Virus genome (UHGV): UHGV-0334393
Length of the DNA stretch: 10,956 nucleotides
Strand: one strand, 5' to 3'
Source of the DNA: a virus
Below the pieces are notes generated by a model. The model searched no databases. It saw nothing but the letters and a program-made list of their open reading frames with translations, and was not told where the DNA came from. The position numbers were made by a program, and so were the translations under genes. Positions 2,340 to 10,202 of this stretch are shown one piece after another (positions within the stretch are counted from its first letter, which is position 1; each line of letters begins with the position of its first letter).

Positions 2340-2351
2340 GGGGAACATATG

Positions 2352-2385
2352 ACACATAAAACAAAGGCGACCTGGGGCGGTCGCC
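2352..2385 (-). terminator. Rho-independent terminator for the minus-strand unit (stem GGCGACC / GGTCGCC, loop of 6, then a U-rich tract on the minus strand)
   Basis: On the minus strand the hairpin at 2366..2385 is followed by TTTGTTTTAT. On the plus strand it is not followed by a T-run. It sits between the convergent alpA-like and RHH-like genes. Confidence 0.5.
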
Positions 2386-2449
2386 AATGGGAAAACACTA
2401 AACATAAGCCCGAACATCATAGCGATTTGCTGGCTGGTGGGCAATGCAA

Positions 2450-2623
2450 TCAGTCTGGTTCAGTTCGTTGCCATACCTGCAATGAGCGCGTTTCCCTGTA
2501 CTCTTTAAGGAATTGCTCAAGGGCAAAAGCACATGGCGCGAATCGTTCTGATTCATGCTCTTTCTTTCTGCGTCGTCTTTTTCGTGCAGGTGATGTTTTT
2601 TCGGTTGATTCTTCGTTGGTCAT
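2450..2623 (-). CDS. Small, highly basic hypothetical protein (57 aa) downstream of the RHH-like gene; below the ORF-track length cutoff
   Basis: Manual translation of the minus strand gives MTNEESTEKTSPARKRRRRKKEHESERFAPCAFALEQFLKEYRETRSLQVWQRTEPD. It lies between the RHH-like gene and the minus-strand terminator. Ribosome-binding site is weak; coding status is uncertain. Confidence 0.25.
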   Translation of the reverse strand: MTNEESTEKTSPARKRRRRKKEHESERFAPCAFALEQFLKEYRETRSLQVWQRTEPD

Positions 2624-2680
2624 TGTGTGCGCCTGTAAAGCAATGCGCCGTAGTACCTCACACCACGGCGCTGATAGTGA

Positions 2681-2878
2681 TTATTCTGATTCTTTGGCCT
2701 TCCGGCGCTGTTCATATTTTAATTTGCGTCCACAGGCATCTAAGACCCATGCGGAAAAATTAGCACTAGGATTAGTTAATTTTTCTTGTTCAACGCTGGC
2801 ATCAATCCCATCTATAAGCTCATGTGGGAATCGAATATTTTTCTTTGCTGATTTGTTGTTTGTGTTACCGCTAGACAT
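2681..2878 (-). CDS. Ribbon-helix-helix (CopG/Arc/MetJ-like) DNA-binding protein; candidate repressor
   Basis: 65 aa. The pattern KNIRFPHELIDGIDASVEQ...NPSANFSAWVLDACG fits a beta-strand, helix, turn, helix RHH layout. GAGGTG Shine-Dalgarno about 6 nt upstream of the ATG on the minus strand. Its upstream region carries palindromic operators. Confidence 0.6.
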   Translation of the reverse strand: MSSGNTNNKSAKKNIRFPHELIDGIDASVEQEKLTNPSANFSAWVLDACGRKLKYEQRRKAKESE

Positions 2879-2907
2879 TGATGCACCTCACTTAAATGGA
2901 CTTTATG

Positions 2908-2986
2908 GGCGCACACAATACAGCAAAAAAAATGAGATGTTAAGTATTGACATGTGCGCACACATGATTTTAATCTGTGCGCACAG
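2908..2986. promoter_or_regulatory. Divergent promoter/operator region: perfect 10-bp palindrome TGTGCGCACA twice (2953..2962, 2976..2985) flanking a -10-like TTTAAT, with TTGACA at 2947..2952; related half-sites GGGCGCACACAAT (2908..2920) and ATTGTGTGCGCC (2621..2632)
   Basis: Palindromes and hexamers read directly from the sequence. TTGACA, a 16-bp spacer and TTTAAT point rightward toward the 3077.. operon; the operators overlap the spacer and the +1 region. Confidence 0.55.
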
Positions 2987-3076
2987 TTTGAGTTTTGTCA
3001 TTCAAATTAAGCAACGCCCCGCAGTGCTCGCAACACATGCAGGGCGTCTAACCAACAACGTAAACTAGGAGCCGTT

Positions 3077-3274
3077 ATGGTTGCCGTAAATCATATACCA
3101 CACCTTGTACACACACAAACGGCCTTTGTGTGGCGTTTTCTGGCCCTGAGTGCCGGAGAATCTCAAATCATCCACGTAACCGCCTGGACGGAACGCGAAG
3201 CGCGTAGCCGTTGCCCGTCCGGTTGTGTTGCTGTATTCGCCGCCCGTATTCGTCAGGGGGTGAGTCATGCATAA
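3077..3274 (+). CDS. Hypothetical protein (65 aa), first gene of the operon that ends in the primase
   Basis: AGGAG Shine-Dalgarno 5 nt upstream of the ATG; overlaps the next ORF by 8 nt (ATGCATAA). No recognisable homology. Confidence 0.55.
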   Translation: MVAVNHIPHLVHTQTAFVWRFLALSAGESQIIHVTAWTEREARSRCPSGCVAVFAARIRQGVSHA

Positions 3275-3494
3275 AATACCCTTTGATGTTCTTATTCATT
3301 CTGAAAACGCATTAATTAAAGCGCGCGAAATGAATGTGTTGTTAATTAAATTAATTGAAGCAACGGAAGCTGGAGAAGAATCTTCGTCATTAATGCTTGC
3401 CGCCGTTCAGACATTACTATCGCCTGTAATTGATGAACTGGATAAGGCGATGGCAATTCACGAAAATAATAACGCGCCCCACACCGGAGAATAA
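3267..3494 (+). CDS. Hypothetical protein (75 aa), predicted helical
   Basis: Start overlaps the stop of the upstream ORF (translational coupling); GGGGGTGAG Shine-Dalgarno. No recognisable homology. Confidence 0.55.
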   Translation: MHKIPFDVLIHSENALIKAREMNVLLIKLIEATEAGEESSSLMLAAVQTLLSPVIDELDKAMAIHENNNAPHTGE

Positions 3495-3499
3495 AAATA

Positions 3500-3799
3500 A
3501 TGAAACTTAAATATTCTGGCTTAACTGCCAGTGGCAACACTCACCCTAAATTTACGCGCGGTGATATTTACCGCGACCAGTACGGCGGCACGGTAATGAT
3601 TAAGGGCGTGGCGGGACGGTGCGTAACTTACCGCCGTGAAGGTTACGAATATGATTGCGTGATGCCTGTTTATCAGTTCCGGCGTGATTTTTCTCTGGTA
3701 CAGACCGCGCCGCATAACGTGCCCACCAGCAACGCCAGAGCACGGGCAAACATCCAGAAGCTGAAAACAATGATTAACGGATTCAGGGGTAAAAAATGA
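3500..3799 (+). CDS. Hypothetical protein (99 aa)
   Basis: GGAGA Shine-Dalgarno 9 nt upstream; its stop overlaps the primase start (ATGA). No recognisable homology. Confidence 0.6.
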   Translation: MKLKYSGLTASGNTHPKFTRGDIYRDQYGGTVMIKGVAGRCVTYRREGYEYDCVMPVYQFRRDFSLVQTAPHNVPTSNARARANIQKLKTMINGFRGKK

Positions 3800-5928
3800 A
3801 ACTGGCACCGAACGTAAAACAGCAGTCACGCGGCATAAAACACAAAGAAACAGAAGTCATTATTTTTGCGGGTAGTGATGCCTGGTCACACGCAAAACAA
3901 TGGCAGGAACATGACGCGCGTATGGCCGGAGATAATGAGCCTCCTGTGTGGCTTGGGGAGCAGCAGTTATCCGAACTGGATAAGCTGCAAATTGTGCCGG
4001 AAGGCAGAAAATCAGTACGCATATTCAGGGCCGGACATCTTGAGCCAGTAATGATCAAGGCGATTGGTCAGAAACTGGCGGCGGCAGGCGTACAGGATGC
4101 AAATTTTTACCCTGAGGGAATGCACGTTCAGAAGGTGGAGAACTGGCGCGAATATCTGGCCCGTGAGCGGCAGAATCTTTCTGATGGTCTGGTTATTGAG
4201 CTTCCGGTAAAGAAAAAAGATACCGGAAGTCATAGCGATGACGAATTAAAGCCACGCGTTGAAAGTCGCGCCGATGGTGTTTTCTGGGTAACGCCCAAAG
4301 TGGATAAGCAGTCAGGCGAAATTATCCGGCCTGAGACGTGGTTATGTTCTCCGCTTGAACTACTGGGAACGGGGACGATCGGTAAAGAGCATTACCGCGT
4401 GATGCGCTGGAAAAAAACCGCAAACCATGAAGTCATCACAATGGCGATCCCGTGTGGTGGTATCGGCGACCGTGACGGCTGGCGGTTACTTAAAGATCAC
4501 GGGCTGAACGTGACAACCAACGGCAAATACAGGGCAATCCTGGCGGACTGGATGCAGTTAAGCGGAAGCCATGAGGAATGGCAGTTAAGCACAACAACGG
4601 GCTGGCATTTTGGCGCGTACATCATGCCGGACGGTTCGATCATTGGTGATTCTGAAAAACCGATCCTGTTTACCGGAAAAAGCGCCGCGATTAACGGTTA
4701 TTCCGTGGCGGGTACGGCGGAGGGCTGGCGCGAGAGTGTGGCGCGGCTGGCTGGCGGTAATGCCTCAATGATGCTGGGTGTGGCAACGTCACTGGCAGCG
4801 CCTTTAATTGGCCTTGTGGGTGCTGACGGCTTCGGGGTGCATCTTTTCGAACAGTCATCGGCAGGTAAGACCACCACGCAGAACATCGCATCAAGTTTAT
4901 GGGGAGAGCCGGACGCGCAGCGGCTGACCTGGTACGGCACGGCGTTAGGTATTGCCAATGAGGCCGAGGCCCATAATGACGGGCTTTTACCACTGGATGA
5001 GATAGGCCAGGCCGGAAATGCGCGGGAAGTGTCAACGTCTGCTTATACGCTGTTTAACGGTTCAGGGAAATTGCAGGGGGCGAAGGATGGCGGCAACAGG
5101 GAGATCAAACACTGGCGAACGGTGGCAATCAGCACCGGAGAAATGGACGTTGAGACATTCCTCAAAAGTGAGGGGATAAAAGTTAAGGCGGGGCAGCTTG
5201 TCCGACTGCTTAACGTTCCGATGGAAAAAGCCACGAAATTTCACGAATACAGCAACGGTAAGGAACATGCTGACGCGTTAAAGGATGCCTGGACAGCAAA
5301 TCACGGGGCGGCGGGTCGTGAGTGGGTTAAATGGCTGGCAGGCCACCAGCAGGAGGCAAAGGACACGGTAAGGGAATGCCGCGAACGGTGGCGCAACCTG
5401 ATACCGGAGAGTTACGGCGAGCAGGTCCACCGCGTGGGTGAACGTTTCGCCATACTGGAGGCCGCGCTTGTGCTTTCCGGTCATGTAACTGGCTGGGTCG
5501 TGCAGGAATGCCGCGACGCGATACAGCATAACTTTAATGCCTGGGTGAAGGAGTTCGGCACGGGTAACAGGGAATTTAAACAGATGGTTGAACAGGCTGA
5601 GGCGTTTTTGTCGTCGTTTGGGTTTAGCCGCTACCTTCCGTACCCCAATACAGATGAGCGTGATTTACCGATTAAAGAGCTTGCCGGATACAGAAAAGGG
5701 AGCATTCGCAACGAAGATGACGAGATGCGCTATTACACGTTCCCGCACGTGTTTGAGAGTGAGATAGCGAAGGGATTTAATCCGGCGCATTTTGCGCGTG
5801 CCCTGGATGCTGCCGGAATGCTGGAGAAGGGAAGCGATCGCCGATACAAAAAAAAGGCGCTGGGCAAGATTGGGGGTAAGCAGCATGTTTTTTACGTGCT
5901 GATGTTCCAGCCTGATGATGAAGATTAA
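3796..5928 (+). CDS. Replication initiator, primase/helicase type (DUF927/D5-like; SF3-like ATPase domain)
   Basis: 710 aa. Walker A SSAGKTT and Walker B LLPLDEIG motifs in the central region. N-terminal region is consistent with a toprim/primase-like domain. An iteron origin lies immediately downstream, as in PICI pri-rep modules. Confidence 0.9.
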   Translation: MKLAPNVKQQSRGIKHKETEVIIFAGSDAWSHAKQWQEHDARMAGDNEPPVWLGEQQLSELDKLQIVPEGRKSVRIFRAGHLEPVMIKAIGQKLAAAGVQDANFYPEGMHVQKVENWREYLARERQNLSDGLVIELPVKKKDTGSHSDDELKPRVESRADGVFWVTPKVDKQSGEIIRPETWLCSPLELLGTGTIGKEHYRVMRWKKTANHEVITMAIPCGGIGDRDGWRLLKDHGLNVTTNGKYRAILADWMQLSGSHEEWQLSTTTGWHFGAYIMPDGSIIGDSEKPILFTGKSAAINGYSVAGTAEGWRESVARLAGGNASMMLGVATSLAAPLIGLVGADGFGVHLFEQSSAGKTTTQNIASSLWGEPDAQRLTWYGTALGIANEAEAHNDGLLPLDEIGQAGNAREVSTSAYTLFNGSGKLQGAKDGGNREIKHWRTVAISTGEMDVETFLKSEGIKVKAGQLVRLLNVPMEKATKFHEYSNGKEHADALKDAWTANHGAAGREWVKWLAGHQQEAKDTVRECRERWRNLIPESYGEQVHRVGERFAILEAALVLSGHVTGWVVQECRDAIQHNFNAWVKEFGTGNREFKQMVEQAEAFLSSFGFSRYLPYPNTDERDLPIKELAGYRKGSIRNEDDEMRYYTFPHVFESEIAKGFNPAHFARALDAAGMLEKGSDRRYKKKALGKIGGKQHVFYVLMFQPDDED

Positions 5929-10006: not shown

Positions 10007-10202
10007 GAGAAAGGATCTGATAATGGCATTTTCTGGCTAAAATGCCTCGTGTCAGATCCTTTCTTTTTTTAATATTTTCATTGTTAAACAGTCTGTTACA
10101 GAGAAGAAGAACGGATCTGACTTTTGCCGGAAAATTTTCATAAACAGATAAAAACCGCGAGGTCGCCGCCCCGTAACGGGCCATAATTCCAGGAAGGACC
10201 CG
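10007..10202 (-). other. cos site 2 (minus orientation): cosQ-like (10172..10202), cosN (complement of 10160..10171), and a canonical lambdoid cosB with three R-site-like repeats (AGAAAGGATCTGA 10008..10020, TCAGATCCTTTCT 10052..10064, AGAACGGATCTGA 10108..10120) and an AT-rich IHF-like segment
   Basis: The reverse complement reads GGGCGGCGACCTCGCGGTTTTTATCTGTTTATGAAAATTTTCCGG...CCGTTCTTCTTC..., near-collinear with the recalled lambda left end through cosB. The middle repeat is inverted relative to the outer two. Confidence 0.8.

Follow-up and report, generated by a model that had tools for sequence, protein, structure and literature searches.

What are the three short open reading frames (ORFs) that stand directly in front of the replicase gene in UHGV virus genome UHGV-0334393, and do they belong to the replication operon itself or to a slot in which a satellite keeps exchangeable cargo? 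The stretch analysed here, 10,956 bases long and called the window below, is a small integrative element. Our reading, to which we assign a probability of roughly 70%, is that it represents a Gram-negative phage-inducible chromosomal island (PICI)-type satellite of Escherichia coli, in which ORF1–ORF3 make up the fixed 5′ part of the replicase operon on one mRNA. The genes at issue are these:

3077..3274, + strand: ORF1, 65 amino acids (aa), first cistron, Icd/Kil family (NF033153, phrog_1743)
3267..3494, + strand: ORF2, 75 aa, acidic (isoelectric point (pI) 4.9), predicted two-helix hairpin (phrog_2196, 2.2e-9)
3500..3799, + strand: ORF3, 99 aa, basic (pI 10.2), DUF4222 protein and RgdR orthologue (PF13973)
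3796..5928, + strand: replicase, 710 aa, DUF927 helicase core with a Cch-type helix-turn-helix (PF06048, 1.1e-48; phrog_1139, 1e-189)

The three frames at 3077-3799, proposed in an initial annotation made from the letters alone, prove to be real genes. Among 89 related loci, the ratio of nonsynonymous to synonymous substitution (dN/dS) is 0.26 for ORF1, 0.22 for ORF2 and 0.27 for ORF3 (15, 8 and 48 distinct alleles, respectively), values that indicate purifying selection. None of these alleles contains an internal stop; stop codons, which the initial annotation had named among the grounds for rejecting the genes, are found in no related island. Variation is highest at third codon positions, and the RefSeq annotation pipeline (PGAP) annotates all three ORFs in near-identical islands. 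The shortness of the ORFs (65–99 aa) and the lack of a curated family for ORF2 could be taken to mean that one or more of them is a chance open frame, but the retention of a 75-aa length by ORF2 over 64–99% identity, together with the selection, stop-free alleles, codon-position bias and independent annotation just described, leaves this explanation a negligible probability. An antisense ORF of 102 codons at 3521-3829 (− strand) is open in 54 of 54 variants, yet its dN/dS is 2.2 against 0.26 for the sense frame; we rejected it as a gene and regard it as a by-product of codons in register with those of ORF3, and the same contrast argues against a chance origin of the sense frame.

The genes are packed stop to start. 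ORF1 ends and ORF2 begins within ATGCATAA at 3267-3274, an overlap of 8 nt; 5 nt separate the ORF2 stop (3492-3494) from the ORF3 ATG at 3500; and the ATGA at 3796-3799 holds both the ORF3 stop and the replicase start. Shine-Dalgarno-like motifs precede all four starts (AGGAG before 3077, GGGGGTGAG before 3267, GGAG at 3486-3489 before 3500 and AGGGG before 3796), so that the initial annotation was right about both the ribosome-binding sites and the overlapping or abutting codons. The motif that serves ORF3 sits in the final codons of ORF2 (ACC GGA GAA TAA), and the junction CACACCGGAGAATAAAAATAATG between ORF2-family and DUF4222 genes is nearly invariant in the related loci. Given this packing 3′ of a promoter with three palindromes, co-expression with the replicase is the natural reading. 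The earlier proposal that the ORFs are co-translated with the replication protein from an operator-controlled promoter is thus supported as regards co-expression, and the layout further suggests that ORF1–ORF3 and the replicase are translated and translationally coupled.

Our comparison covers 89 DUF4222-containing loci, comprising 80 from IMG/VR together with several annotated E. coli genomes, Shigella and E. albertii, onto which reference proteins were mapped; a scan of genome contigs with ORF3 gave two loci only, and the comparative set was drawn from IMG/VR and RefSeq matches. The order of the genes is always the same: first an Icd-like gene (short or N-terminally extended, and sometimes duplicated), next a variable set of none to three small genes, and then an ORF2-family gene, DUF4222 and finally the replicase. 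The ORF2-family gene lies immediately 5′ of DUF4222 in 88 of the 89 loci, and in every one of them DUF4222 and the replicase overlap at an ATGA. A minimal three-gene front end occurs in the window and in three further islands (L007, L010 and L079). This fixed order of families in essentially all loci marks ORF1–ORF3 as core genes of the operon rather than swappable cargo.

Around this invariant order the sequences have been exchanged as in a mosaic. The downstream protein, called a primase in the initial annotation, is a replicase of the DUF927 helicase type with an N-terminal domain of about 125 aa (3796-4170) that carries no Pfam annotation and has no match in a PDB sequence search; Pfam detected no primase domain as such. 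This N-domain is common, at 46–100% identity, to replicases of three unrelated helicase types (DUF927, D5_N/DUF5906/Pox_D5 and AAA_25 RepA), the window's copy being 64–87% identical with those of the D5_N/DUF5906 and AAA_25 RepA replicases of related islands. Breakpoints of the mosaic lie at the ATGA junction and 3′ of the N-domain. Identical ORF3 proteins precede N-domains that are 46–100% identical to the window's, and all three helicase types; ORF3 identity and N-domain identity do not correlate (r = −0.09); and a Klebsiella element carries the N-domain with DUF4222 absent. Exchange of ORF3 has not involved the adjoining genes, an indication that its target lies in the host.

The initial annotation recognised none of the three proteins, a statement that no longer holds for ORF3 and ORF1. 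ORF3 matches the entire 53-position model of PF13973 with 82.1 bits (gathering threshold 27) and is 78% identical, over 99 of 99 residues, to ECs1581 of O-island 51 of strain EDL933 (L002:8874-9173), whose product we identify as ECs1581/RgdR because it carries D10, R20, Q27, K35, H45 and R61. ORF3 is therefore a relative of an experimentally studied regulator, which raises activity of the LEE1 promoter (of LEE, the enterocyte effacement locus) and type III secretion and lowers motility, whose residues 20 and 35 influence activity as judged by mutagenesis, and which binds DNA without sequence specificity in electrophoretic mobility shift assays (PMC3378721). According to PMC6092414, every E. 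coli PICI that was analysed encodes RgdR. The window's protein keeps T19-R20-G21-D22 and K35, whereas its homologues have R, S, N, P or H at residue 20; the window's protein differs from ECs1581 at 22 of 99 residues, including D10A, which is also seen in C1493 and ECED1_1787, and H45R, which is also seen in ECED1_1787. Nothing else in the operon is as well conserved as ORF3, whose copies in the E. coli and Shigella loci are 73–100% identical to the window's.

The AlphaFold model of ORF3 consists of a five-stranded SH3/Tudor-like barrel (residues 21-68, with a predicted local distance difference test score (pLDDT) of about 91), a basic C-terminal helix (77-96) and a disordered N-terminus. As modelled, the barrel is similar to the domains by which UvrD/PcrA and CarD bind RNA polymerase, and to the KOW domain of Spt5/NusG. 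A Foldseek search of BFVD returned uncharacterised SH3-like and DUF1653 proteins only, and a PDB sequence search with the ORF3 profile found no match.

By its sequence, ORF1 is recognisable as a member of the Icd/Kil family in the position characteristic of that family. It matches NF033153 (‘host cell division inhibitor Icd-like protein’) with 64.7 bits (cutoff 25; 5.8e-18) over residues 17-60, and phrog_1743 at 1e-22; Kil of phage P4, likewise 65 aa long, matches the same two models (76.1 bits on NF033153). In a multiple alignment ORF1 shows 37% identity with P1 Icd and 30% with P4 Kil, and the three share the motifs F-[VI]-W-R-F, A-x-T-E-x-E-A-R (T-E-x-E-A-R-S with P1 Icd) and F-[AT]-A-R. 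These conserved blocks span the region equivalent to residues 12-51 of P1 Icd, the core that suffices for FtsZ binding and for the division block (PMC11897509). The relationship required comparison by hidden Markov model (HMM) and multiple alignment, as BLASTP of ORF1 against the old P4 ‘cI’ coding sequence gave no match; a PDB sequence search with ORF1 was likewise negative. The last 65 codons of that ‘cI’ sequence encode Kil (L003 8171-8365, − strand), and since the region that homologues match is Kil/Icd, the label ‘transcriptional repressor’ borne by phrog_1743, phrog_6196 and phrog_6928 is misleading for them; its apparent source is the protein-coding ‘cI’ annotation of P4, now obsolete. 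The ORF1 copy of EDL933 is 98% identical to the window's, and RefSeq names both the ORF1 and the ORF3 families in near-identical islands.

The position of ORF1 has parallels in both phages. The P1 record shows a 4-nt overlap between icd and ant1 and notes that ant expression requires icd. In P4, translation of the alpha operon begins with kil, and passage of ribosomes through this gene prevents premature termination (kil/eta logic, PMC10111431). A terminator-like hairpin at 3112-3132 (CACACAAA/TTTGTGTG, then GCGTTTTCTG), which covers codons 12–19 of ORF1 over the FVWRF motif, was considered as a sign of attenuation and set aside: it is restricted to the close HTQTAFVWRF subclass of ORF1 and shows no compensatory changes, and is probably incidental.

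For ORF2 the earlier verdict stands in the main, since the protein belongs to an uncharacterised and very small family; it does have one match, to the unannotated phrog_2196, with none in Pfam, NCBIfam or PADLOC. Its close homologues (n = 95) are 54–99% identical and mostly 75 aa long, the named ones coming nearly all from Escherichia or Shigella, and a profile search retrieved 15 proteins among 1.84 billion cluster representatives. The AlphaFold2 model predicts helices at 6-33 and 38-68 (pLDDT 81) joined by an acidic, variable loop; a Foldseek search of the PDB returned generic helical hairpins only (E > 0.5), from which we drew no inference. Membership of the family was recognised by a hairpin of 72–84 aa ending in [HI]-[TG]-G-E, and distant members match the profile at 2e-4. 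Profile, alignment and shared C-terminus together identify as distant relatives the 77–80-aa genes that stand before DUF4222 in other islands, and a 72-aa member immediately precedes the replicase in the Klebsiella element. All proteins of the family are acidic (pI 4.7–5.1), as against the basic ORF3.

The remainder of the window agrees with the gene plan described for Gram-negative PICIs (PMC6092414, PMC10111431). Searches with Pfam and NCBIfam identify int, AlpA, YlcI, DUF927, SSB, Phage_cap_E, HDPD and Nu1, that is, an integrase, alpA, a unidirectional operon with a replicase of pri-rep type, and packaging-related late genes. PICIs are also defined by a length of about 10–15 kb and by an attachment (att) site that prophages do not use, and the island was placed here by its yljB and clpS neighbours rather than by att mapping: the flanks of the window match essentially every E. 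coli genome, and near-identical islands of ~10.5 kb are located between cspD/yljB and clpS in E. coli. A 1.4-kb region was matched in 1448 of 5426 complete E. coli genomes, so that this front end of the operon is present in about a quarter of them. In 50,697 phage records, tblastn found no match for ORF2, one for ORF1 (in a cf-PICI-like record) and one, weak, for ORF3, and blastn of the ORF region came back essentially empty; by these near-empty searches the three are not genes of helper phages. [quoted passage not shown] A long AT-rich hairpin at 10029-10134, 3′ of the terminase gene, could be a terminator or a packaging-related site. Upstream of ORF1 the window holds the following features:

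482-1720: tyrosine integrase
within 2043-2339: AlpA-family regulator
2681..2878, − strand: divergent gene of the YlcI/YnfO family (DUF3950; NF041551, 3.5e-16; PF13132, 1.6e-6)
2906..2985, + strand: putative promoter-operator region, from its repeat family and from reading of the sequence
3006..3076, + strand: conserved 5′ leader of ORF1, with a hairpin, a CA-rich tract (TCTAACCAACAACGTAAAC) and the AGGAG Shine-Dalgarno motif

The predicted promoter of the operon combines a −35 element TTGACA (2947-2952), a spacer of 17 nt and a −10 element TTTAAT (2970-2975). Three copies of the palindrome TGTGCGCACA, at 2906, 2953 and 2976, bracket this promoter, which faces the YlcI/YnfO gene; RefSeq annotation shows such a gene at the equivalent position in related islands, and its product is a candidate repressor of the operon promoter. 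Related islands keep the TTGACA promoter and carry other palindromes at equivalent positions (GGTAATTACC, TGTTCAACAC, GGTGGTCACC, ACGTACGTAC), which appear to form a series of types that differ in immunity or specificity. A 239-codon ORF at 2349-3068 (+ strand), rich in Cys, Ser and Arg, runs antisense over the YlcI/YnfO gene and the promoter region and is likely spurious; in EDL933 RefSeq lists a 744-nt hypothetical protein at the equivalent L002:7301-8044, and no YlcI homologue was detected there.

The leader between promoter and ORF1 is conserved in at least 15 distinct islands that have different promoters and operators. Its hairpin is formed by an inverted repeat with arms at 3014-3023 and 3038-3047, two base pairs of which are changed on both sides among the islands (A-U/C-G and G-C/C-G), and the CA-rich tract 3′ of the hairpin is invariant. 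The leader has no Rfam family match, and may control translation of ORF1 or stability of the transcript. An Rfam scan of the whole window (E ≤ 1) found neither C4 nor isrK, just two chance matches near 10.05 kb (XIST_intron and mir-1284, E about 0.3) that stem from the hairpin at 10029-10134, and an RNA-based immunity for this island was dropped on these grounds. Both RNAs are present in P4 and in islands L001, L009 and L018, where P4-type cassettes of isrK and C4 (CI) with extra Icd-like copies lie between the promoter and the ORF2-family gene (L001:8585-9251, L009:3698-3883 and L018:3677-3862). EH41 has two copies of C4; the window, EDL933 and L007 have none. Antisense control by C4/CI is a trait of the P1 and P4 systems and not of the Icd/Kil protein family.

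These observations can be joined into a working model. Helper infection would lead, by AlpA-dependent activation and/or by relief of repression at the palindrome-flanked promoter, to transcription of the operon; AlpA has been shown to be a helper-dependent activator in EcCICFT073. Ribosomes would then read ORF1, ORF2, ORF3 and the replicase in turn by way of their overlapping and abutting stops and starts. ORF1 would arrest host division through FtsZ, by homology with P1 Icd and P4 Kil, and its translation as first cistron may open the way for the genes behind it, as that of icd does for ant and that of kil/eta for alpha. In 1999 Forti et al. reportedly found that kil is the first gene translated in the P4 alpha operon and that translation through it averts premature termination. 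ORF3 would have either a conserved component of the host or DNA as its target, and because its stop overlaps the replicase start, it would be made whenever the replicase is made.

How do other explanations of the locus fare against these data? The initial annotation saw in the three ORFs interchangeable accessory cargo, such as helper-interference or anti-phage factors, in a variable slot between regulator and replicase. Related islands do hold extra, variable small ORFs (h1, h2, an EDL_h2-like gene, ash-like fragments, and additional Icd copies with C4/isrK RNAs), and the equivalent stretch of P4 carries epsilon, a helper derepressor. The locus comparison that had been recommended turned out the other way, however: the three families are themselves the conserved frame in the 89 islands, the variable genes are confined to the interval between the Icd-like and ORF2-family genes, where the window has none, and ORF3 varies less than anything else in the operon. 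PADLOC (E ≤ 0.1) gave no match for ORF1, ORF2, ORF3, the replicase or YlcI, which also speaks against an anti-phage factor. The comparative map largely refutes the cargo reading, and we consider it very unlikely. Defence could enter in another form, if the front end were an abortive-infection or superinfection-exclusion device in which a phage protein perturbs repression and releases the toxic Icd-like protein and its neighbours, so that the cell stops dividing or dies. Abortive infection of this kind has experimental precedent in related loci (Silas et al., bioRxiv 10.1101/2023.04.06.535777): in one of them, removal of the Icd-like gene abolished the effect, and a P4 prophage killed cells upon Abc1 expression, maybe via kil as the authors suggest. 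ORF1 is of one family with these Icd-like and Kil proteins. Yet ORF1 is the short form that lacks the N-terminal extension, no gene of the operon is matched by PADLOC, and the normal satellite cycle requires these genes in any case, so that exclusion would come as a bonus and not as their main function. As an explanation of the locus we regard it as unlikely; abortive infection may come on top of the main role instead of replacing it.

The main rival, which we hold to be possible but clearly short of probable, is that ORF2 and ORF3 are replication accessories (for origin recognition, helicase loading or as priming partners of the replicase N-domain) and that the effects of RgdR on LEE and motility are by-products. 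Such a role, also among the initial suggestions, would fit the universal ATGA overlap and the place of the ORF2-family gene directly 5′ of DUF4222, the sharing of the ~125-aa N-domain by all three helicase types, the non-specific DNA binding of RgdR, and the Klebsiella element, in which the ORF2-family gene abuts the replicase. It is weakened by the failure of DUF4222 to co-vary with the replicase, to the point that identical ORF3 proteins precede N-domains just 46–48% identical to the window's; by the presence of the N-domain without DUF4222 in that same Klebsiella element, and of neither in P4 alpha; and by the finding that ORF3 (RgdR) alone, supplied in trans, alters host phenotypes. Several points nonetheless count against our own reading. 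That DUF4222 is invariably coupled to the replicase agrees equally well with a role in replication, and the RgdR phenotypes, which come from enterohaemorrhagic and uropathogenic E. coli (LEE, motility), may be by-products of what RgdR does in the satellite cycle. FtsZ binding by ORF1 is an extrapolation at 30–37% identity to the characterised Icd and Kil, and the window lacks the C4/CI antisense RNA by which icd and kil are controlled in P1 and P4, so that the control logic of the first cistron differs. ORF2 has no assignable role, and the activities and expression of ORF1–ORF3 in this island are read from sequence.

With these reservations we favour the view that ORF1–ORF3 are the fixed 5′ part of the replicase operon of a PICI-type satellite. 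A bolder extension, which we put forward as a speculation and judge rather unlikely, is that DUF4222/RgdR is primarily a PICI host-takeover factor that docks onto a conserved host machine (e.g., RNA polymerase), with ORF2 as its partner or buffer. The barrel would dock, the basic helix would contact nucleic acid, and host transcription would be reprogrammed whenever the replicase is made. Such a role would account for ORF3 being the best-conserved element of a highly mosaic operon and for its lack of co-variation with any neighbour encoded by the island. If true, basal expression would spill over into the effects seen on LEE and motility, and RgdR would not primarily be a virulence regulator.

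For genome annotation the finding is ordinary: the ORF1 and ORF3 families are already named in RefSeq, ORF3 has a dedicated experimental paper, and ORF2 represents an uncharacterised small family. The comparative points are useful but incremental. They add Kil/Icd as a fourth gene family common to P4 and the E. coli PICIs, for which an earlier comparison gave only Int, AlpA and Pri-Rep, and they identify RgdR and a small acidic hairpin protein as fixed, linked companions of three replicase types. In O157:H7, rgdR affects type III secretion and animal colonisation; should the native job of RgdR indeed lie in the satellite cycle, this would offer a mechanistic basis for a link between satellite induction and virulence gene expression.

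Comparison with known systems places the window among the E. coli satellites. As in P1 and P4, the first cistron of the early operon encodes a protein on the same HMM as Icd and Kil, of the size of P4 Kil, with its stop over the next start as in P1 icd/ant1; in contrast to both phages, ORF1 is preceded not by a C4/CI or isrK/seqA element but by a palindrome-flanked promoter facing YlcI/YnfO and by a distinct leader hairpin. The P4 alpha operon (kil/eta, epsilon, orf151, orf106, alpha) shows the same succession of a Kil-type first cistron, small genes and a replicase, 3′ of an AlpA/Vis-type gene and an integrase. Of the two, P4 has RNA-based immunity (C4, isrK), epsilon, DUF5375 genes and a true primase N-terminus, and it lacks the DUF4222 gene, the ORF2 family and the shared replicase N-domain found in the window. 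The cell-death locus of the ECOR61 prophage (Silas et al., bioRxiv 2023) likewise links an Icd-family protein to a DNA primase in one block, although there the Icd-like protein carries a long extension at its N-terminus and depends on all six linked genes, a comparison made from the description of the locus.

ORF3 and RgdR (ECs1581; O-island 51/CP-933C, which is EcCIEDL933 in PMC11773190) agree in the DUF4222 domain, the length of 99 aa, the RGD at residues 20–22, K35, the place before the replicase and the ATGA overlap, while the two islands differ in their late modules, of lambda E/D/Nu1 type in the window and with an HK97-type capsid, protease and portal in EDL933. The overall plan of int, alpA, small ORFs including rgdR, pri-rep and packaging genes is that of EcCICFT073, EcCIED1a and the cf-PICI EcCIEDL933. 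Set apart from these three islands, the window pairs a divergent gene of the YlcI/YnfO type with an operator palindrome of its own and has the minimal front end of three genes.

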